Source of the DNA: an uncultured Enterobacteriaceae bacterium
GTDB taxonomy: Bacteria; Pseudomonadota; Gammaproteobacteria; Burkholderiales; SG8-39
Direction of reading: 5' to 3'
Assembly (NCBI GenBank): GCA_964565875.1
Contig: CAZMGP010000001.1
Location: 123,747 to 187,746 of the forward strand
Length of the DNA stretch: 64,000 bases
Below, one piece after another: positions 7,386 through 31,839 of the stretch (positions within the stretch are counted from its first letter, which is position 1; each line of letters starts with the position of its first letter). Under the pieces are notes generated by a model that saw only the letters and a program-made list of their open reading frames with translations, was not told where the DNA came from and searched no databases. Made by a program: the position numbers and the translations under genes.

Positions 7386-8711
7386 ATGGCGACTTGGCGC
7401 AGAAGACGCAACGCGATCGGAACGAAGTTTTGCATCAACTCAATCTCGGCCGTGGCGCACGCGTTGGCGGCGGCAGTGCTCGCGCTTGCGAGCCTCACCG
7501 CCGTGGCGGCCGCCGGCCAGATATCCCAAGCCGATCAGCAGTGCCTGGGCTGCCACGGGACCAAAGGCATGGAGACGAAAGCGGCCGATGGCGATACTTT
7601 GTCCTTGTATGTGCAAGCCGACCTGTTCGCGAAATCGGTTCACAGCATGATCGGCTGCGCCGTCTGCCACGGCGACGCCACGCTGGCGAACCACCCTCCG
7701 CTCAAGAAGAAGATCGCGAGCGTCCGCGAGCACTCGCTCGAATTGACGAAGGTCTGCTCGTCTTGCCACGGTGCCATTGCCAAACAGTACCAGGGCAGCA
7801 TCCACGCCACGCTATTGCGTAACGGCGTCTCGGTCGCGCCGGTCTGCAGCGATTGCCACAGCCCGCACGCGGTGATGGCGAAAGCCGCCTACGACGCCGC
7901 GAGCGGGGCGCCCTGCAGCAAGTGCCACGATTCCATCTTCGGCGCCTATAAGGGCAGCGTGCACGGCAAGGCCACGCTTGCCTGCTCGAACTGCCATAAG
8001 TCGCATGACGTGAGCCCCGCGGCGGGCGAGGACAAGCTGAAGAACGCCTGCCTCGGTTGCCATCCGGACGCGTTGACGGCGCACCAGACTTGGCTGCCGA
8101 ATTCCGAGCGGCACTTCGACGCGGTGTCCTGTCCCGCGTGCCACGTGCCGGGAGCGAAGCGCAAGGTCGACCTCAGGCTCTACGACAATGTGGCGCAGCG
8201 GCGCGTCGCCGAAAGAGAGGGCGTGCCGCAATTCGAAAGTCGGGTGCGTTCAGCAGACGCGAAGGGCGTCGGACTGGATGCGATGGCACTGCACAGCCTG
8301 CTGCGCGAATTCGGCCGCGACCGCGGCGACAGCAAAATGACCCTGCGCGGCCGGCTGGAAGTCGCGAACGGCGTCGAGGCGCATCAACTTACGCGCAAGG
8401 ACCAGGCGATTCGCGATTGCACCAAATGCCACCAGCAAGGCGCCGATCCGTTTCAGAGCGTGACCGTTTCCATCGTCGGACCCGACGGCCGGCCGGTGCG
8501 CTACGGTGCGCAAAAAGAAGTGCTGAATTCGATCATATCGGTGGATTCGGTGAGCGGGTTCTACGCCATCGGCGGCACCCGGATCAAGCTGCTGGATGCG
8601 CTGCTCGTCCTCGCGCTGATGGGCGGCTTCGGCGTGCCGATCGGCCATGCGACGGTGAGATGGTTGTTCAAGAAATACGCGAAGAAGATCAGCGGAAAAG
8701 AAGACTCCTGA
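7386..8711 (+). CDS. nine-haem c-type cytochrome with C-terminal membrane anchor
   Basis: There is a signal peptide and nine CxxCH motifs (CLGCH, CAVCH, CSSCH, CSDCH, CSKCH, CSNCH, CLGCH, CPACH, CTKCH). A C-terminal TM helix follows (LLDALLVLALMGGFGVPIG). Confidence 0.9.
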   Translation: MATWRRRRNAIGTKFCINSISAVAHALAAAVLALASLTAVAAAGQISQADQQCLGCHGTKGMETKAADGDTLSLYVQADLFAKSVHSMIGCAVCHGDATLANHPPLKKKIASVREHSLELTKVCSSCHGAIAKQYQGSIHATLLRNGVSVAPVCSDCHSPHAVMAKAAYDAASGAPCSKCHDSIFGAYKGSVHGKATLACSNCHKSHDVSPAAGEDKLKNACLGCHPDALTAHQTWLPNSERHFDAVSCPACHVPGAKRKVDLRLYDNVAQRRVAEREGVPQFESRVRSADAKGVGLDAMALHSLLREFGRDRGDSKMTLRGRLEVANGVEAHQLTRKDQAIRDCTKCHQQGADPFQSVTVSIVGPDGRPVRYGAQKEVLNSIISVDSVSGFYAIGGTRIKLLDALLVLALMGGFGVPIGHATVRWLFKKYAKKISGKEDS

Positions 8712-8774: not shown

Positions 8775-9410
8775 ATGGAAAGAATCTACGTTCACCCCTT
8801 ACCCGTCAGGATCTGGCACTGGATCAACGCGCTCGGTTTCCTGACCATGATGCTCACCGGCTTTCAGATCCGCTACATCGGGTTGTTCGACCTGATGTCG
8901 TTCCGCACGGCGGTCGTGGTGCATAACTGGGTGGGTTTCGCCCTCATCGCCAATTTCTTCGTCTGGCTACTGTTTTACCTGTTCTCGGACAAGATCCGCG
9001 TCTACCACCCGGAACTGAGCCCGATGAAGCATTTCCAGGCGAGCTTCCGCCAAGCCATGTATTACGGCTACGGCATATTCAAGGGTGATCCCAACCCGCA
9101 CCATGTCAGCGTCTACCGCAAGTTCAACTCGATGCAGAGCATGAGCTATCAAGTCATCATGCTTCTGCTGGTGCCTATCCAGTTCTATACCGGCGTGCTG
9201 CTGTGGGAGGTGAAGGGCTTCTCCGGCATGATCGACCTGCTTGGCGGGGTGCGCGTGGTGGATACGGCGCATGTGCTCATTTTCATATTCTTTGCCGGCT
9301 TCATTCCGATGCACATCTATCTTGCGCTTCTCGGCCACACCCCCATGGCGCACATCAAATCCATGTTGACCGGCTACGAAGAAGTAGAGGAAGAGCACGG
9401 AGTCAATTGA
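8775..9410 (+). CDS. b-type cytochrome membrane subunit (PhsC/FdnI/HydC-like)
   Basis: AAAGGAA lies upstream of the ATG. The N-terminus (YVHPLPVRIWHWINALGFLTMMLTGFQIRY) is typical of this four-helix di-haem b family. Conserved His residues sit in the helices. Confidence 0.8.
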   Translation: MERIYVHPLPVRIWHWINALGFLTMMLTGFQIRYIGLFDLMSFRTAVVVHNWVGFALIANFFVWLLFYLFSDKIRVYHPELSPMKHFQASFRQAMYYGYGIFKGDPNPHHVSVYRKFNSMQSMSYQVIMLLLVPIQFYTGVLLWEVKGFSGMIDLLGGVRVVDTAHVLIFIFFAGFIPMHIYLALLGHTPMAHIKSMLTGYEEVEEEHGVN

Positions 9411-9464: not shown

Positions 9465-9498
9465 ACGGCCGGGGCGGATTATGGTCCGCCCCGGCCGT
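9465..9498 (-). terminator. candidate intrinsic terminator for the minus-strand receiver operon
   Basis: A 14-bp GC-rich stem (ACGGCCGGGGCGGA / TCCGCCCCGGCCGT) has a 6-nt loop. On the minus strand it is followed by TTTTCATT. Confidence 0.55.
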
Positions 9499-9533
9499 CA
9501 GCTTGAGGGTCGTGCGTCGGGTTTACTTGGAAG

Positions 9534-9636
9534 CCCGTAACAAACGGAGGTTTGTTACGGGCCGATTTAGAGGAGCACGAGGGGAGGCGCCCCGCAGGAA
9601 GTGCCCTTGGGGCATATCCCCTCGTCTTGTCACAAA
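9534..9636. repeat. structured ~100-nt repeat, copy 1 (partner at 25626-25726)
   Basis: It is near-identical to 25626-25726. It has two hairpins: CCGTAACAAA/TTTGTTACGG, and ACGAGGGGA...TCCCCTCGT with an inner GCCCC/GGGGC stem. It lies between the stop of the minus-strand gene 9630-10421 and the terminator at 9465-9498. Confidence 0.8.
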
Positions 9637-10421
9637 CTCTTCGTTTCGCTATTTCCCGCCAGCGCCTTGGCGCCGAGCTTGCTCCAGGCTTGCAGGCCGA
9701 ACCAGAGCAGCATGCCCAGCCCGACAATCGGTCCGATGACGAAGAACGCGAGGCCGATGAACGGGGCCGCCACTAGCATGCCGAACTGTTTCAGCGCGCT
9801 CGGCTTCGCCGGAGCTGCGGCCGGCATGCGCGCGGCTTGTTCCGCTTTCTTCTGTTGCGCTTCGATGGCCATCCACGCGAGCATGCCCAGACCAACGATC
9901 GGGAAGGTCAGGATGTAGGCGAGGCCGACGAAGGGAGCGGCGAAGAATAGCGCCACGTTCTTGACGAAGCGCAGGATGCCGCCCGCAGCTTTGGGTGCCG
10001 GCGCCGCTTCCGCAGCACCTTCGGCAGCGACGGCGGCTGCCGGTGCCGCTGCTTTTTCCGACAGGGCTTTCGCCGCGCTGCCTTCGATCATTTCGGGCGA
10101 CAGCGGCTTGCGCAGGAAAGCCGATACGCCGGCCGCTTCCGCGCGCGCCTCGTTGTCGCTCGAGCCGTAGCCGGTGACGATGACCACCGGCAGCCACGGC
10201 CGCTGCGCTTTGACGCGCTCGGCCATTTCCAGGCCGCTCATGCCGGGCATTTTGATATCGGTGAACACCACGTCGTAATCTTCCGCATCGAGCTTGGCTA
10301 ATGCCTCTTGGCCATTGTTCGCGGTGATCACCGCGTAGCCCTTTCCGGAAAGAACCCGGTCGAAGCTTTTCCCGACCACCGGATCGTCGTCTACCACTAA
10401 AACTTTGCGAATTGCGCTCAT
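9630..10421 (-). CDS. response-regulator receiver fused to a duplicated C-terminal membrane segment
   Basis: The REC motifs are present (VLVVDDDP, FTDIKMPGMSG, FLRKPL). An Ala-rich linker follows, then two similar hydrophobic blocks (ALFFAAPFVGLAYILTFPIVGLGMLAWMA and GMLVAAPFIGLAFFVIGPIVGLGMLLWFG). An AAGGAG SD lies upstream of the ATG. Confidence 0.85.
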   Translation of the reverse strand: MSAIRKVLVVDDDPVVGKSFDRVLSGKGYAVITANNGQEALAKLDAEDYDVVFTDIKMPGMSGLEMAERVKAQRPWLPVVIVTGYGSSDNEARAEAAGVSAFLRKPLSPEMIEGSAAKALSEKAAAPAAAVAAEGAAEAAPAPKAAGGILRFVKNVALFFAAPFVGLAYILTFPIVGLGMLAWMAIEAQQKKAEQAARMPAAAPAKPSALKQFGMLVAAPFIGLAFFVIGPIVGLGMLLWFGLQAWSKLGAKALAGNSETKSL

Positions 10422-10939: not shown

Positions 10940-11164
10940 GAGCCCGACGGCTAGGCGATTCTTCTCTAATCGTCAGAGACTTAAGTCGCGAGCGCGGCTA
11001 TCGTGGCGCGGGTGAGGGGCGCGTCGTGCGGGCGCCGAAGTATATTTTTCTTATTCAGCTTGCGGCCGGACGAAGGGAAAAATCAGTCGATTTTCAACTG
11101 CATAGACCTTGCCCGCAGGCGCGCAAAAAAAATATACGCAGCAGAGCGCCACTTCTGGACGACT

Positions 11165-11194
11165 GAAACAAAACGAGGGGACAAGTCCCCTCGT
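11165..11194 (-). terminator. intrinsic terminator downstream of the glutaredoxin-like gene
   Basis: The stem is ACGAGGGGA-CAAG-TCCCCTCGT. On the minus strand it is followed by TTTTGTTT, about 25 nt after the stop at 11220. Confidence 0.75.
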
Positions 11195-11219
11195 TCTGCA
11201 ATTCACACTAAGGAAGAAA

Positions 11220-11696
11220 TCAGGGCGTAGCCGTCTTGGGATAGCCGGCGGTATCGAGCGCCTCGTTCCAGGCTTGCGCTTCGAAATCCTTCTGCACCAC
11301 GGTGCCCACCGTCAGCACCGGCACCCGCGGCGCGCCCGCGAGCTTCGTCAGCTGGTCGATTTCTTCCTGGGTGGAGATGACTTTCTCGGCGTACGGCACG
11401 CCGCGCTTCTTCAGGAAATCCAGACCCTTCTTGCATGGGTCGCCGCAATCCTTGGAGGTGTAGACCGTGACCGGAAAATTCTTCGTCGCCTGCTCGAGCG
11501 CGTAAGGCTTTTGCGGCGCAGCCGCCGGACGCGCCGACTCCTTCTTTTGCACATTCTTTGCGCTCGCCGGCGGCGGCGTGTCGGTGTAGTGCACTGCGCC
11601 GCCGTCGTCGGTCCAGCGATAGAGTTGGGCCGCGGCGCTAGTGGCAAGGGCGAACAGACTAACTGCGATGAGTGCGCGCATGGTGCGTCTCGACAT
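11220..11696 (-). CDS. secreted DUF4124-type N-terminal domain fused to a glutaredoxin-like domain
   Basis: There is a signal peptide. LYRWTDDGGAVHYTDTPP is the DUF4124 signature as I recall it. The sequence VTVYTSKDCGDPCKKGLDFLKKRGVPY..VPVL looks like a glutaredoxin fold with a CxxC motif. Confidence 0.75.
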   Translation of the reverse strand: MSRRTMRALIAVSLFALATSAAAQLYRWTDDGGAVHYTDTPPPASAKNVQKKESARPAAAPQKPYALEQATKNFPVTVYTSKDCGDPCKKGLDFLKKRGVPYAEKVISTQEEIDQLTKLAGAPRVPVLTVGTVVQKDFEAQAWNEALDTAGYPKTATP

Positions 11697-20040: not shown

Positions 20041-21372
20041 ATGGCGAGCAGCATCACCGAAATCAAGATTCCCGACATCGGCGACTTCAAGGAAGTCGAT
20101 GTGATCGAAGTGCTGGTCAAGCCCGGCGACCGCGTGGCGAAGGAATCCTCGCTCATCACCGTCGAGTCGGACAAGGCGACGATGGAAATTCCCTCGCCCG
20201 CCGCGGGGGTGGTGAAAGAGCTGATGGTCAAGCTGGGCGACAAGGTGAGCGAAGGCAGCGCGATCCTGCTGCTCGAGGCGAGCAATGACGAGGTGCAGAC
20301 GGCACCTGTGCAAACCCGTAGCGCGCCTGCGGTAGCAGTGCAAGCCGCGCCGACGGCGGCGGCGAGCGTGGTCGCACCGCTGCCGACGCGCAAACTCGCC
20401 CCGGTCGCACCAGAAGCCGAGGCGCAGCTGTTCCGGCCGCACGCGAGTCCCTCGGTGCGCAAGTTCGCGCGCGAGCTCGGCGTCGAGCTCGCGCGGGTGC
20501 AGGGGACCGGCGCCAAGGGGCGCATCACCCAGGAAGACGTGCAGGCCTTCGTCAAGGGCGTGATGACCGCAACGCCGGAAGCCACCGCCGCGGCGGCCAG
20601 TGCACGCGGCGGCATACCCTTCAACTTGCCCGAGTGGCCGCAAGTGGACTTCGCAAAGTTTGGCCCGGTCGAAACCAAGCCGCTGTCGAAAATACGCAAG
20701 CTCTCGGGCGCCAATTTGCACCGGAACTGGATCTCCATTCCGCACGTCACCCAGTTCGACGAGGCCGACATCACTGAGCTCGAGGGTTTCCGCAAAGAGG
20801 CGGGGGCGGCGAGCGAGAAGCAGGGCTTCAAGCTCACGCTGCTCGCCTTCCTGATCAAGGCGAGCGTCACCGCGCTGCGCCAGTTTCCGGAATTCAACGC
20901 TTCGCTCGAGCGCGGCGGCGAAAACCTGGTACTGAAGAAATACTTCCACATCGGCGTCGCAGTCGATACGCCGGACGGCTTGGTCGTGCCGGTGATCCGC
21001 GACGCCGAGCGCAAAGGCGTCTACGAGCTCGCGCGCGAATTGGCCGATGTATCGGCCGCGGCGCGGGAGAGAAAGCTCAAGCCGAGCGACATGCAGGGCG
21101 GCACGTTCAGCATTTCCAGCCTGGGCGGCATAGGCGGCACGGCGTTCACGCCGATCATCAACGCGCCGGAAGTTGCGATCCTCGGCGTGTCGCGCTCGGC
21201 GCAGCGCCCCGTCTGGGTCGCTGGCAAAGACGGCGCAGGCGCGTTCGAGCCGCGGCTGATGCTGCCGCTTGCGCTCTCCTACGATCACCGCGTGATCGAC
21301 GGCGCCGCCGGCGCGCGCTTCCTGAGCTATCTGGCGTCGGTGCTGTCCGACATCCGCCGCTCGCTGCTCTAG
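20041..21372 (+). CDS. aceF: dihydrolipoamide acetyltransferase E2 (single lipoyl domain)
   Basis: The lipoyl motif is [11 protein letters not shown]. The subunit-binding domain is ASPSVRKFARELGVEL. The catalytic tail is LSYDHRVIDGA. Confidence 0.95.
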   Translation: MASSITEIKIPDIGDFKEVDVIEVLVKPGDRVAKESSLITVESDKATMEIPSPAAGVVKELMVKLGDKVSEGSAILLLEASNDEVQTAPVQTRSAPAVAVQAAPTAAASVVAPLPTRKLAPVAPEAEAQLFRPHASPSVRKFARELGVELARVQGTGAKGRITQEDVQAFVKGVMTATPEATAAAASARGGIPFNLPEWPQVDFAKFGPVETKPLSKIRKLSGANLHRNWISIPHVTQFDEADITELEGFRKEAGAASEKQGFKLTLLAFLIKASVTALRQFPEFNASLERGGENLVLKKYFHIGVAVDTPDGLVVPVIRDAERKGVYELARELADVSAAARERKLKPSDMQGGTFSISSLGGIGGTAFTPIINAPEVAILGVSRSAQRPVWVAGKDGAGAFEPRLMLPLALSYDHRVIDGAAGARFLSYLASVLSDIRRSLL

Positions 21373-22040: not shown

Positions 22041-23797
22041 CCGACGCAGTCGAGATCAAAGTACCGGACATCGGGGATTTCAAGGACGTCGACGTCATCG
22101 AGGTCCTGGTCAAGCCGGGTGACAGGGTGGAGAAGGAAAGCTCCCTCATCACGGTGGAGTCGGACAAGGCGACGATGGAAATCCCCGCGCCGGAAGCCGG
22201 CGTGGTGAAGAAGGTGATGCTCAAGGTCGGCGACAAGGTTTCCCAGGGCACGCCCGTCCTCTTGCTCGAGCCGACGGCGGACGCGGAGCAGCAGGCGGCC
22301 GTCGCCGCGGCCCCGGCAAAGGCGGAACAGGTCGAGCCGGGCGCCGGAGTGGGCGCGCAAGCGAGCAGAACCTCAGCGGCTACCGGCGCGGACCTGCACG
22401 CGGAAGCCGTGGTCCTCGGCGCGGGACCGGGCGGCTACACCGCCGCGTTTCGCGCCGCCGACCTGGGCAAGAAAGTCGTCCTCACCGAGCGTTATCCGGC
22501 GCTCGGCGGCGTGTGCCTCAACGTCGGCTGCATACCGTCCAAGGCATTGCTGCATGCGGCGAAAGTGCTGACCGACGCCGAGGAAATGGCGCACGCCGGC
22601 ATCGCCTTCGGCAGACCGAAGATCGACGTGGAGAAGCTGCGCGCCTGGAAGGAAGGCGTCGTCGGGCGCTTGACCAAGGGTTTGGCCGCGCTCGCCAAGC
22701 AGCGCAAGGTGACGGTGATCCAAGGCGCGGCGCAGTTCGAATCGCCGCACGCCATCGCGGTCGAGACCGAGGCGGGACCGAAGCGGGTGTCCTTCGATCA
22801 TTGCATCGTCGCGGTCGGCTCGAGCGTGGCGCGCCTGCCCGGCTTTCCATATGAGGATCCACGCCTGATGGATTCCACCGGCGCGCTCGCGCTCGCCGAC
22901 ATTCCGCGGCGGCTGCTGGTGATCGGCGGCGGCATCATCGGCCTGGAGATGGCCTGCGTCTACGATGCTCTCGGCTCCAAGGTGACGGTGGTGGAACTGG
23001 CCGACGGCCTCATCCCCGGGGCAGACCGCGACCTCATCCGGCCGCTCGCCAAGCGCCTGGAGAAGCGCTACGAGGCGATCTACTTGAACGCCAAGGTGAC
23101 TAAGCTCGAGGCAAAAGAAGAAGGCTTGCTCGCGAGTTTCGCCGGCGAGGTGAAGCCGGCGCAGCAGATGTTCAATCGCGTGCTGCTGGCGGTCGGGCGA
23201 AGACCCAACGGCGCGGCAATCGGCGCCGAGCGCGCCGGCGTCGCAGTGGACGAGCGCGGCTTCATCGCCGTCGACAAGCAGCAGCGCACGAACGTGCCGC
23301 ACATCTTTGCCATCGGCGACGTCTGCGGCGAACCGATGCTCGCGCACAAGGCGACGCACGAAGCGAAGGTGGCGGCAGAGGTCATCGCCGGGCACAAGGC
23401 GGCGTTCGACGCGCTCACCATCCCCTCGGTCGCCTACACCGATCCGGAAGTCGCTTGGATGGGCTTGACCGAAACCGAGGCGAAGCAGCGCGGCATCGAT
23501 TACGACAAAGCGAGCTTCCCCTGGGCGGCGAGCGGCCGGGCGCTCTCCATCGGCCGCGACGAAGGCTTGACCAAGTTGCTGTATGACAAGGCGAGCAAGC
23601 GTCTCCTCGGCGCCGGCATCGTCGGGCCCAACGCGGGCGAGTTGATCGCCGAGTTGGTGCTCGCCTTGGAAATGGGCGCCGACATGGAAGACATCGGTCT
23701 CAGCATTCACCCCCACCCGACGCTGTCGGAGACGCCCTATTTCGCCGCCGAGATGGCTCTGGGCAGCATCACCGATCTCTACCTTCCCAAGAAATGA
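22037..23797 (+). CDS. lpdA: dihydrolipoamide dehydrogenase E3 with N-terminal lipoyl domain
   Basis: The N-terminal ~80 aa are a lipoyl domain ([11 protein letters not shown]). The FAD motif GAGPGGY follows, then the redox disulfide [10 protein letters not shown] and the HPTLSE tail. Confidence 0.95.
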
Positions 23798-25527: not shown

Positions 25528-25625
25528 TACCGCAACTCCTATTCGAATAGGGCGCTATTTTAGCGTAATCGGCAGCGCCAAATTCCCACAAACCGCATCC
25601 GGCTTTCGCGATGGAGACTTAGAAC

Positions 25626-25726
25626 CCCGTAACAAAAGTTCTTTGTTACGGACTGATTTAGGGGAGCACGAGGGGAGGCGCCCCGAAGGAAGTGCCCTTG
25701 GGGCATATCCCCTCGTCTTGTTACAG
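25626..25726. repeat. structured ~100-nt repeat, copy 2 (partner at 9534-9636)
   Basis: It has the same two-hairpin element as copy 1. It begins within a few nt of the stop of the minus-strand pirin gene and lies upstream of yggX. Confidence 0.8.
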
Positions 25727-25730
25727 ACCC

Positions 25731-26600
25731 TCAGTCCGCAGGCTGCGTCAGTCGGCCGGACTGGTAGTCGCGGATCGCCTGTTCGATTTCCTCGCGCGTA
25801 TTCATGACGAAGGGGCCATACTGCACCACCGGCTCGCCCAATGGCTTGCCCGCAAGCAGCAGGAAGCGCGCGCCCTCGGCTCCGGCCGTTACCTGCACCG
25901 ACTCACCCGAGCTCAGCACGCCGGCTGCATGGGTGCCGAGGGTTTCGCCGTCGACGCTTGCGCTGCCTTCGAACACATAGATGAAGGCATTGTGTTCGGC
26001 GGGCAAGGACTGGGTGAACGCCGCGGCCGCGGGAAGCGCGACGTCGAGATAGACGGGTTCGGTGCTGAGCCCCTGAATCGGTCCGGCCACGCTACGCCCA
26101 TCCAGCATCAAGTTGCCGGCGATCACTTTGGCGAGTCCCCCGCCCGGAAGCGATGTCGCAGGGATCTCCGTCGGCTGGATGTCGCGGTAGCCCGCCGGCT
26201 TCATCTTTTCGCGCGCCGGCAGATTGATCCAGAGCTGGAAGCCGCGCATGCGCCCGTGTTCCTGCTGCGGCATTTCCGAGTGGATGATGCCGCGGCCGGC
26301 GCTCATCCACTGCACCGCACCGCTTTTCAAGTCGCCGCGATGCCCGAGGTGATCTTCGTGCAGCATATGCCCATCGATCAGGTAGGTGACGGTTTCGAAG
26401 CCACGGTGGGGATGCGACGGAAAGCCCGCGATGTAGTCGTTCGCATCGAACGACGAAAATTCGTCCAGCATCAGGAAGGGATCGAGACGGGTGAACGGCG
26501 ACTGCCCCAGGCTGCGACGCAGCTTTACGCCGGCGCCGTCGGAGGTGGCGACGGATTCGATCACGCGTTGCAGCGTGCGTACTGTCTTCTTCGCGCTCAT
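25731..26600 (-). CDS. pirin family protein
   Basis: The cupin metal motif is HPHRGFETVTYLIDGHMLHED. The start is taken at MSAKKTV, with GGAAAGGAAG upstream. The longer track ORF adds an Arg/Pro-rich extension that looks non-coding. Confidence 0.9.
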   Translation of the reverse strand: MSAKKTVRTLQRVIESVATSDGAGVKLRRSLGQSPFTRLDPFLMLDEFSSFDANDYIAGFPSHPHRGFETVTYLIDGHMLHEDHLGHRGDLKSGAVQWMSAGRGIIHSEMPQQEHGRMRGFQLWINLPAREKMKPAGYRDIQPTEIPATSLPGGGLAKVIAGNLMLDGRSVAGPIQGLSTEPVYLDVALPAAAAFTQSLPAEHNAFIYVFEGSASVDGETLGTHAAGVLSSGESVQVTAGAEGARFLLLAGKPLGEPVVQYGPFVMNTREEIEQAIRDYQSGRLTQPAD

Positions 26601-30489: not shown

Positions 30490-31839
30490 GTGAATTCCTC
30501 GCAGTCGAGCCTGTCCTTCGAGCAGGCACCGCCGATCTCGGTGCCTTATCGCTTCTTTCTCACCGCGCCGCTGTTCGGCGCCTTGGCCGGTCTCGTCCTG
30601 GTGTGGCTCGGCCCGGAAGCGCTCGAATCGCGCTGGGCGCCGGGCGCTTTGGCGATGACGCATCTGATCGTGGTCGATTTCATGCTGCAGACCATGTGCG
30701 GATCGCTGCTGCAATTCGTCGCCGTGGTGGCGGGCGCGAACATCTGGCGACCGCGCCTGGTCGCAGCGATCGTGCATCCCTTGATCACGGCGGGTGCGGT
30801 GTTCCTGGTCGCCGCCTTCCTGCTGGAGGAGCCGCCCCTATTCCTGCTCGCTGCCCTGGTATTCGCCTGCGCGCTGGGCTTGTTTCTCACCGTCATGGCG
30901 CTGGCGCTACTGCGCACACCGGCCCGCGGCATGTCCATCCATGTGCTGCGCATCGCCGTGCTGGGGCTCCTCGTGACGGTCGCGCTCGGCGTCACCCTGG
31001 CGAGCATTCTGGGGCTGCAGGAATTTTGGCGACCAGACTGGCCGCTGCTGCCGCTGATCAACGTCCATCTCGCCTGGGGTCTGGGCGGATGGGCGCTGAT
31101 GCTGGTGGTCGGCGTCTCCTACATGGTGGTGCCGATGTTCCAGCTGACGCCGCCGTATCCGCTCTGGCTGACGCGGCTGCTGCCCGCCGGCCTGTTCGTC
31201 GCGGTGTGCCTATGGTCCTTGCAGCTCTTTACCGCGCGCGGCGAAGCCCAGTCCTGGCACGCAGCCGCGGCGGCGGGGGGAATGCTCATCGCCGGTTTCT
31301 ATGCCGGGGTGACGCTGCGCTTGCAGGCGCAGCGCAAGCGTCGCCAGACCGACGTGACTTTCCTCTTCTGGCGCTGTGCCATGCTGTCGCTCGCGGTACT
31401 CGCTGTTTCCTGGCTCGTGTTCCTGCTCGCGCCGCAGCTTGGAAACCATGCGCGCGCGTCGCTGTGGCTCGGCGCGCTGGCGCTGCCGGGCGCGTTCTTT
31501 TCCGTCATCAACGGCATGCTGTACAAAATCATGCCCTTCCTCAACTGGCTGCACTTGCAGCAGCAGGGCGGATTTACGCGCAATACGCCGAACATGAAGC
31601 AGATGATTCCGGAAGGCGCCATGCGCGGCCAGATGTGGCTGCATTTTGCCGCTTACCTGCTACTGCTTGCGGCTGTGCTGTGGCCTGCGCTCGCGCGCAT
31701 AGCGGGCCTCGCCTTCGCCGCATCCTGCCTATGGCTGGAATGGAATCTGGCCGGCGCGGCGCGTCTCTACGCCCGACTGAGAGCGCAGCTCCCGAGCGCG
31801 CCGCGCGAAGGCGGAGCGGGTGCCGCGCGTTCGCCCTAG
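30490..31839 (+). CDS. polytopic membrane protein, function unknown (possibly NnrS-like)
   Basis: The 449-aa protein has about 12 hydrophobic helices. It has a GTG start with a weak SD. The NnrS resemblance (YRFFLTAPLF, THLIVVDFML..G.LLQF) is only impressionistic. Confidence 0.65.
   Translation: MNSSQSSLSFEQAPPISVPYRFFLTAPLFGALAGLVLVWLGPEALESRWAPGALAMTHLIVVDFMLQTMCGSLLQFVAVVAGANIWRPRLVAAIVHPLITAGAVFLVAAFLLEEPPLFLLAALVFACALGLFLTVMALALLRTPARGMSIHVLRIAVLGLLVTVALGVTLASILGLQEFWRPDWPLLPLINVHLAWGLGGWALMLVVGVSYMVVPMFQLTPPYPLWLTRLLPAGLFVAVCLWSLQLFTARGEAQSWHAAAAAGGMLIAGFYAGVTLRLQAQRKRRQTDVTFLFWRCAMLSLAVLAVSWLVFLLAPQLGNHARASLWLGALALPGAFFSVINGMLYKIMPFLNWLHLQQQGGFTRNTPNMKQMIPEGAMRGQMWLHFAAYLLLLAAVLWPALARIAGLAFAASCLWLEWNLAGAARLYARLRAQLPSAPREGGAGAARSP

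Follow-up and report, generated by a model that had tools for sequence, protein, structure and literature searches.

What kind of sequence is repeated beside the ends of minus-strand genes in the genome of an uncultured bacterium? The question is raised by a 64,000-nucleotide (nt) stretch of contig CAZMGP010000001.1 (assembly GCA_964565875.1), hereafter the window, in which a preliminary description made from the letters alone had noted two nearly identical copies of a ~100-nt element with two hairpins, each next to a minus-strand stop codon, and had proposed that it could be a mobile repeat, a small RNA (sRNA) derived from a 3′ untranslated region (3′-UTR) or a protein-binding RNA motif. Comparison with related genomic and metagenomic sequences leads to the conclusion that the two stretches, together with a decayed third one, are very probably copies of a non-autonomous transposable element, i.e., a MITE (miniature inverted-repeat transposable element), which is ~90 bp long or, with a 27-nt insert, ~117 bp.

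Delimited by a covariance model of the family (R1, see below), the two copies occupy 9527-9643 (79.6 bits, E = 3e-17) and 25619-25734 (73.2 bits) of the window. They are indeed nearly identical (92% over 90 nt, ungapped; family D4 of the window repeat search), and the element is longer than had been noted. A 19-nt core is present twice, with 0.08 occurrences expected by chance. Between GATTTAG and CTTGT there are exactly the two substitutions that had been reported, A/G at 9571/25662 and C/A at 9595/25686, and the stem of hairpin 1 is kept in both copies with a loop that differs in sequence and length (GGAG within CGGAGG versus AGTTC), again as described. The parts of the copies are as follows.

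9527 to 9529, plus strand: copy 1, left flanking triplet TTG, a degenerate target-site duplication whose partner is TTC at 9640-9642
9530 to 9639, plus strand: copy 1, body of 110 nt, 27-nt loop insert counted in, from the GAAG... to the ...ACTC terminus (R1 match and alignment to copy 2)
9533 to 9562, plus strand: copy 1, hairpin 1, GCCCGTAACAAAC, loop GGAG, GTTTGTTACGGGC (it folds, and all 12 pairs covary in the family); the 5′ arm doubles as the left terminal inverted repeat
9563 to 9577, plus strand: copy 1, linker CGATT and conserved motif TAGAGGAGCA (family consensus TAGGGGAGCA)
9577 to 9625, plus strand: copy 1, hairpin 2, arms ACGAGGGGA at 9577-9585 and TCCCCTCGT at 9617-9625, loop composed of GG, the 27-nt insert (9588-9614) and TA
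9626 to 9639, plus strand: copy 1, tail and right terminal inverted repeat CTTGTCACAAACTC (terminal repeat pairing)
25619 to 25621, plus strand: copy 2, left target-site duplication TTA
25622 to 25730, plus strand: copy 2, body (R1 match, sequence and fold)
25627 to 25651, plus strand: copy 2, hairpin 1
25659 to 25668, plus strand: copy 2, motif TAGGGGAGCA
25668 to 25716, plus strand: copy 2, hairpin 2, arms at 25668-25676 and 25708-25716, 27-nt insert at 25679-25705
25717 to 25730, plus strand: copy 2, tail
25731 to 25733, plus strand: copy 2, right flanking triplet TCA, one base off the left TTA, and on the minus strand the pirin stop codon TGA
11144 to 11211, plus strand: third, decayed copy (R1 21-23 bits, E ~1e-3, filters off), with a GAGCGCC left end, a degenerate hairpin 1, a hairpin-2-like ACGAGGGGAcaagTCCCCTCGT at 11173-11194, the tail TCTGCAATTCACAC and a TAA flank at 11209-11211; the TAGGGGAGCA motif is absent

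Both strands of the two full copies fold strongly (z-scores of -4.6 to -6.3 against shuffles), as any palindromic DNA would, and the folding gives no guide to which strand, if either, is functional.

The size of the family was established by comparison with 80 proteobacterial genomic loci (1.36 Mb) fetched around relatives of pirin and with metagenome contigs. The nearest relative is a Burkholderiales metagenome-assembled genome (DAIDTN01, locus L001), whose pirin is 81% identical to that of the window and is flanked on either side by a shorter relative of the element; these two show compensatory changes in both hairpins and share a conserved linker, TAGRRGAGCAYGAGGG. A degenerate hairpin-2 pattern built from these four copies (two from the window and two from L001) matched at least 120 metagenome contigs, and approximately 105 of the 129 matches had the same hairpin 1, linker, tail and flanks, though the pattern required none of these. 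A stricter pattern with the inner GCCCC/GGGGC stem of the window copies had no match in genome or metagenome contigs because it was too specific to the long variant. As RNAalifold on a MAFFT alignment gave hairpin 2 alone, the arms of hairpin 1 being misaligned, a covariance model (R1) was built on the consistent subset and the copies were then realigned to it. The search for further copies with such a model, which the preliminary description had recommended, yielded 116 copies in 100 sources, including 12 missed by the pattern, with up to three copies per contig of 6-13 kb and three in the 64-kb window. Among the 80 genomic loci copies were found only in L001, and therefore the family appears, as far as these sequences go, to be lineage-restricted; several metagenome contigs encode proteins 75-85% identical to those of the window.

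No match to copy 1 or to a short-form copy was found by blastn in plasmids. Viral contigs gave no match to the family pattern, and their 26 matches to the left-terminus 16-mer were all chance matches inside phage coding sequence. Rfam had no match in the window at gathering thresholds, and E-value scans of the element and six related loci gave chance-level matches only. The literature, searched by sequence strings and by topic, contained no description that we could find. A match to a known repeat or RNA family, which the preliminary description had regarded as an outcome that would speak against a structured RNA, was thus met with in none of Rfam, plasmids, viral contigs and literature. The element represents an undescribed MITE family of an uncultured Burkholderiales-like betaproteobacterial lineage.

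Mobility is best seen in the sequences that flank the copies. The triplets on the two sides are identical in 30 of the 116 copies, compared to 11.2 +/- 2.9 in shuffles, none of which reached 30 in 20000 trials. Flanks of TAA/TAA (14 copies) and TTA/TTA (13) predominate, with one TAA/TTA and no TTA/TAA, and an independent parse agrees. Since the TWA flanks match as direct repeats, they are a target-site duplication and not part of an inverted repeat. A filled and an empty site could also be compared. In L177 (1124-1207), 84 nt of element lie between two CTG triplets, whereas the orthologous site in L160 (~3790) is uninterrupted (with flanking homology of 310 nt and, on the opposite side, 47 nt); the window orthologue of this site, 31836-31839, is empty as well. 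The duplication of CTG in L177 implies that the target is not strictly TWA. The L177/L160 site itself consists of overlapping convergent stop codons.

Near-identical copies occur at unrelated loci, such as window copies 1 and 2 or the GGCCGTTTCA subfamily in L098, L105, L176 and L199, and the spacer between pirin and yggX is occupied, in the window and in L001, by subfamily members that differ from each other and point in opposite directions. This adjacency was shared only by L001 among the loci compared, and no empty site was seen there. The ends are imperfect terminal inverted repeats, in which 58.7% of cells pair (54.0% in shuffles, 34-46% with a slid partner). The left terminus, GAG..., recurs in inverted and weaker form as the right terminus, ...CTC; GAG and CTC at the very ends pair in roughly half of the copies, and in some of them up to 12 of 14 positions pair. 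Movement thus involves the element as a whole, and 3 bp of target, most often TAA or TTA, are duplicated in the process. It is small and non-coding, has a duplication of fixed length and terminal inverted repeats and is present in dispersed copies, all of which are features of MITEs. The initial suggestion of a REP/MITE-like repeat (REP, repetitive extragenic palindromic sequence) therefore holds in its second part, for which the duplication, the terminal repeats, the filled and empty pair and the dispersed copies speak; the first part is disfavoured because a duplication is present.

Why the copies stand beside stop codons can be understood from the choice of target. The preferred context is CTWAG(G), in which TWA is the duplicated triplet. 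GC-rich genomes supply this sequence mostly as stop codons (TAA/TAG) and as stop/Shine-Dalgarno junctions (TAAGGAG), and therefore copies are found at gene ends, on either strand. On the 5′ side of the element, the stop codon of a flanking gene and the duplicated triplet are one in 24 of 66 cases; on the 3′ side this holds for 16 of 44. Where a gene starts downstream, its start codon follows at a median of 11 nt after the element, and the right-hand target copy restores the ribosome-binding site. The proximity to minus-strand stops noted at the outset is correct. The last 10 nt of the gene for a receiver-transmembrane (receiver-TM) protein (9630-10421, minus strand) belong to the tail of copy 1, and its stop codon is at 9630-9632; copy 2 lies between the stop of the pirin gene (25731), whose TGA abuts its right end, and the start of yggX (25527); and the decayed copy is 8 nt from the stop of a minus-strand gene at 11220-11696. 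All three are antisense to the genes that end beside them. It is target choice, and not a function in the 3′-UTR, that places copies next to stop codons.

Some copies are inserted within operons. One lies in sense orientation between rplR (L18) and rpsE (S5) at four diverged loci (L088:11111-11200, L109:2933-3022, L111:6638-6727 and L168:2392-2481), where the flanks are 88-90% identical and hairpin 1 shows a compensatory change while TAGGGGAGCA and the stems of hairpin 2 are unchanged; another sense copy lies between nuoF and nuoG. In co-directional gene pairs 39 copies are in sense and 18 in antisense orientation (p = 0.0075), i.e., orientation is biased, not fixed. The preliminary description had regarded a bias of position or orientation, along with compensatory changes, as a test of a structured RNA. 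Compensatory changes do exist, and the bias of position and orientation is explained by insertion preference.

The internal organization of the element bears on the possibility that it acts as RNA. The consensus reads, in order, t-C-[TWA]; GAG-hairpin 1; C-YGA-yt; TAGGGGAGCA; hairpin 2; tTyGTWAnnnnCTC; [TWA]-G. The left terminus is GAG or GAA in most copies. Hairpin 1 has a variable stem of 9-13 bp and an A-rich loop (..GAAT..), whereas the consensus of hairpin 2 is AYGAGGGGA-NNNN-TCCCCTCRT. Elements are 84-117 nt long (~90 nt in the short form) and contain no confined open reading frame (ORF). In the model-based alignment of 116 copies, hairpin 1 reaches 88.9% pairing, both sides of each of its 12 pairs have changed, and its covariation score is 0.40 (0.127 in shuffles, up to 0.075 with slid arms); these figures lean towards structure, as the alignment of hairpin 1 was fitted to the model. 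A test free of alignment gave a similar picture, in that arms of hairpin 1 match their own partner with a score of 9.2, versus 5.6 with partners from other copies. The preliminary description had taken the variation in loops as a sign of selection on structure. The two substitutions between the window copies are too few for this argument, and it is the larger alignment that reveals a structural constraint on hairpin 1. The tail, considered as a third copy of the hairpin-1 arm, shows a significant but weak correlation (5.75 within versus 5.10 between elements).

Hairpin 2 is 99% paired and nearly invariant. One of its pairs alternates (U-A in 62 copies, C-G in 50, U-G in 2) and has switched repeatedly inside a single hairpin-1 type, CATTTC (13 TA, 11 CG, 1 TG). 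The motif TAGGGGAGCA is 96-100% conserved per position, as are the stems of hairpin 2, across very different types of hairpin 1; part of this conservation is ascertainment, since the search pattern and the model both require hairpin 2. A search seeded with the halves of hairpin 1 only led to nine further places, of which six had hairpin 2 with no more than two changes, one (L137) had a much more diverged hairpin 2 and two were truncated.

Such constraint would be understandable if the element were a structured cis-acting RNA, for instance a 3′-UTR element, an sRNA or a protein-binding motif, whose hairpins are selected as RNA, whose TAGGGGAGCA and hairpin 2 form a binding or processing site and for which mobility is a means of spread. 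The changes on both sides of all 12 pairs of hairpin 1, the repeated switching of the hairpin-2 pair, the conservation of TAGGGGAGCA and the hairpin-2 stems, the retention of sense copies in rplR-rpsE and nuoF-nuoG, and the excess of sense copies would all fit this explanation. However, orientation is not fixed, the window copies are all antisense, and the pirin-yggX spacer contains both orientations. Mismatches of the types G·T and A·C are about equal in number (15 and 12 in hairpin 1, 9 and 5 in hairpin 2; the counts are small), whereas an RNA made from one strand would tolerate G·U and not A·C, so that a strand-specific RNA is unsupported. In addition, there is neither an Rfam match nor a promoter-like site near the window copies, the conservation of hairpin 2 is partly ascertainment as described above, and covariation in an inverted repeat may also arise through shared transposase specificity or conversion between palindrome arms. 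The 3′-UTR-derived sRNA or protein-binding RNA of the preliminary description thus found no support as a strand-specific RNA, and we consider it unlikely that the element is primarily a structured RNA.

In sense orientation, hairpin 2 is followed by tTtGT, with T at positions +1 to +3 in 52-77% of copies, and a terminator scan marked window copy 2 as terminator-like on the plus strand only. This suggests that hairpin 2 with UUUGU resembles a weak intrinsic terminator in sense orientation; any termination would be leaky because sense copies are present inside the spc and nuo operons.

Several variants show that the two hairpins do not always occur together. Copies in L083, L106, L162 and L169 have no hairpin 1, keep the linker and tail, and resemble deletion derivatives. 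In the nuoF-nuoG spacer of two related contigs (L083:1933-2022 and L106:6339-6428), hairpin 1 is largely deleted, with linker, hairpin 2 and tail kept. The genes beside the copies that lack hairpin 1 are ordinary housekeeping genes, with no transposase evident among them. Units of hairpin 2 alone are arranged in tandem in L166:~795-944, L193:364-451 and L136:~1915-2004, with periods of 60 nt and 58 nt; the spacer of the L166 array contains GCTCCCC, the complement of GGGGAGC. Two full elements are found head-to-tail in L152:13202-13374, the second beginning at the tail of the first, which suggests that one copy was inserted at the end of another. Approximately 15 of the 129 copies, both window copies among them, carry 27 extra nt in the hairpin-2 loop, between GG and TA; this insert is CGCCCCGAAGGAAGTCCCCTYGGGGGA in most of them. 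It is flipped end-to-end in L093:261-377, and a further insert is nested in L103:6046-6182. In the window copies, the insert has an inner 5-bp hairpin with a compensatory change from TCCCC/GGGGA to TGCCC/GGGCA.

These variants raise the question of a composite origin, in which hairpin 2 and its motif would be a unit of their own, belonging to the host or selfish (for instance a leaky terminator or a stabilising hairpin), that was captured beside a minimal foldback transposon, hairpin 1, and hitch-hikes by means of a cryptic right end. Hairpin 1 alone does have the form of a left inverted repeat, loop and right inverted repeat with near-perfect arms, while the outer right end is weak; hairpin 2 occurs without hairpin 1 and, with UUUGU, looks like a weak terminator in sense orientation; and the 27-nt module stands one way round in the hairpin-2 loop of L093 and the other way round in that of the remaining copies. 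Against this, no solo hairpin 1 was found, seven of the nine places seeded with hairpin 1 having hairpin 2 and the other two being truncated, the duplication flanks the whole unit, and several of the copies without hairpin 1 (L083, L106, L162 and L169) look like deletions. A composite origin is therefore distinctly improbable in our judgement.

Tandem units of a conserved hairpin are also reminiscent of REP sequences. Bacterial interspersed mosaic elements (BIMEs) and REPINs share with the element short extragenic palindromes, a 5′ TAG motif, a location at gene 3′ ends and inside operons, singletons as well as clusters, and a conserved hairpin structure. The element could be imagined as a REP-type sequence moved by a REP-associated tyrosine transposase (RAYT, HUH/Y1) or as a palindrome-associated transposable element (PATE) derived from IS200/IS605, the enzyme reading hairpin 2 and the TAG motif 5′ of it as a single-stranded DNA hairpin. 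The conserved hairpin is preceded by a conserved motif in which TAG is invariant (only 24% of copies have GTAG), hairpin-2 units are, like REPs, found singly and in tandem clusters (L166, L193), and recognition as DNA would account for a structural constraint on the hairpins together with symmetric G·T and A·C mismatches. On the other hand, HUH/Y1 transposition makes no target duplication, unlike that of the element. Seven conserved nt (GGGAGCA) lie between the TAG and the foot of hairpin 2, whereas the GTAG of REPs abuts the hairpin; no inverted pairs of hairpin 2 were found around any gene in the loci examined, and no Y1 transposase was seen near copies in a non-exhaustive inspection by eye. 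REPINs are inverted doublets of one REP, in contrast to the two unrelated hairpins and tail of the element. Movement by an enzyme of this type is very unlikely.

Returning to the MITE, its ends and its duplication offer clues to the mobilising enzyme. The element would be mobilised in trans by a DDE transposase making 3-bp staggered cuts, and, judging by the 3-bp duplication and the GAG ends, the likeliest candidate is an enzyme of the IS1031 type within the IS5 family. Insertion at a site of three nucleotides is described as common in the IS1031 group (PMC2516522). Hairpins 1 and 2 are probably kept for the transposition machinery, either as binding sites or as hairpins in single-stranded DNA, and the inserted element may be co-transcribed with its neighbours, any effect on mRNA (stability, weak termination or translational coupling) probably being secondary. 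The signature of the IS1031 group, namely a 3-bp duplication of the TNA type and GAG termini, the latter as in the ISfinder family tables, fits the element. PIF/Harbinger elements with Tourist-type MITEs, which are eukaryotic relatives of the group, duplicate TWA, and they and the IS1031 group share with the element a target duplication of 3 bp; the element's own termini start with GAG. Unlike members of the IS5 family, the element has inverted repeats that are short and imperfect. To our knowledge, the ends of IS5-family elements contain no counterpart of the TAGGGGAGCA-hairpin module.

Several observations weigh against regarding the element simply as a MITE. In ~2.2 Mb searched, no transposase gene, IS5-family or other, and no full-length insertion sequence (IS) with matching ends was found beside any copy or elsewhere, viral contigs yielded none either, and searches for a parent IS with solo termini and with the window termini were negative; pairs of GAG...CTC inverted repeats with matching 3-bp flanks at a distance of 0.7-2.6 kb were GC-rich chance pairs only. 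The outer inverted repeats are weak and conservation is highest in the internal hairpin 2, the opposite of what a textbook MITE shows. The arms of hairpin 1 complement each other much better than the outer repeats do, and the compensatory changes of this hairpin, including that in the orthologous rplR-rpsE insertion, hint at a constraint beyond transposase binding. Neither the occurrence of hairpin 2 without hairpin 1 nor its tandem arrays (L166, L193) is predicted by a simple MITE model, and the modest orientation bias in operons has to be added. It is conceivable, at a rather low probability, that the invariant TAGGGGAGCA and hairpin 2 form a functional motif (for protein binding, for RNA processing or stability, or as a recognition hairpin in single-stranded DNA) that was spread by a MITE to stop-codon/Shine-Dalgarno junctions and selectively retained in rplR-rpsE and nuoF-nuoG, i.e., a mobile cis-regulatory module. 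Retention in essential operons, the compensatory change in rplR-rpsE, the sense bias and the invariant module hint at something more than passive DNA.

Among known bacterial elements, there is a close likeness to Correia elements of Neisseria (NEMIS, Neisseria miniature insertion sequences) and to enterobacterial repetitive intergenic consensus sequences, or intergenic repeat units (ERIC/IRU). These are likewise ~100-150 bp long and non-coding, with terminal inverted repeats and a short AT-rich duplication, and they are found in many dispersed intergenic copies near gene ends, form hairpins, are co-transcribed and occur in either orientation. Both duplicate TA, whereas the element duplicates 3 bp (TWA), and it has no sequence similarity to either. 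It also differs in that its termini are weakly conserved and its internal hairpin is invariant, in that hairpin 1 is composed of the left terminus and an adjacent internal inverted copy instead of the two termini, and in its hosts, which are uncultured Burkholderiales-like Betaproteobacteria.

Integron attC sites resemble the element in being imperfect palindromes (57-141 nt) located right after stop codons and before the next gene, with structure better conserved than sequence. They were rejected as an identity because most types of hairpin 1, e.g., GGCCATTTC, do not contain the R″/R′ core motifs (RYYYAAC / GTTRRRY), because copies lie in core operons such as rplR-rpsE and nuoF-nuoG and not in cassette arrays, and because of the target duplication. 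A hammerhead-like core (CUGAUG...) was considered and rejected, known ribozymes being excluded on their defining features; a tail resembling rrn boxA was likewise rejected, and a small ORF starting from an AUG inside hairpin 2 was dismissed, as this codon is ACG in half of the copies.

A few features of the window around the copies deserve mention. The preliminary description had placed an intrinsic terminator 3′ of copy 1, and a suitable structure is visible outside the element:

9466 to 9497, minus strand: GC-rich 12-bp hairpin followed by TTTTCA (seen in the sequence)

Judged by its sequence, it is the probable terminator of the receiver-TM transcript; a consensus terminator scan did not call it. 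It lies between convergent genes and has a weak, sub-threshold Rfam alignment to STnc320, a terminator-like hairpin. Just upstream of copy 1 are a gene for a multi-haem c-type cytochrome with many CxxCH motifs (7386-8711) and a membrane protein gene (8775-9410), whose product was taken from its sequence to be of the cytochrome-b type. A direct repeat of 246 nt (20058-20303 and 22051-22296, 77% identity, 1993 nt apart; family D1) is probably paralogous coding sequence.

As a genomic parasite the element is of an ordinary kind, except that its internal hairpin is conserved to an unusual degree. It can be recognised by annotators with the pattern and the covariance model; the lineage to which it appears to be confined is common in soil, sediment and groundwater metagenomes. 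Copies placed on stop codons can extend or replace the last codons of gene models, as in the receiver-TM gene, and copies probably cause breaks in assemblies: several of the contigs end at one or next to it. The family also provides a natural example of how a specificity for CTWAG steers a transposon to junctions of stop codons and ribosome-binding sites, including those within ribosomal-protein and NADH-dehydrogenase operons, with both genes left intact. The combination of a covarying terminal hairpin with an internal hairpin of invariant sequence is unusual for a MITE and gives a handle for finding the mobilising enzyme and for testing effects on operons.

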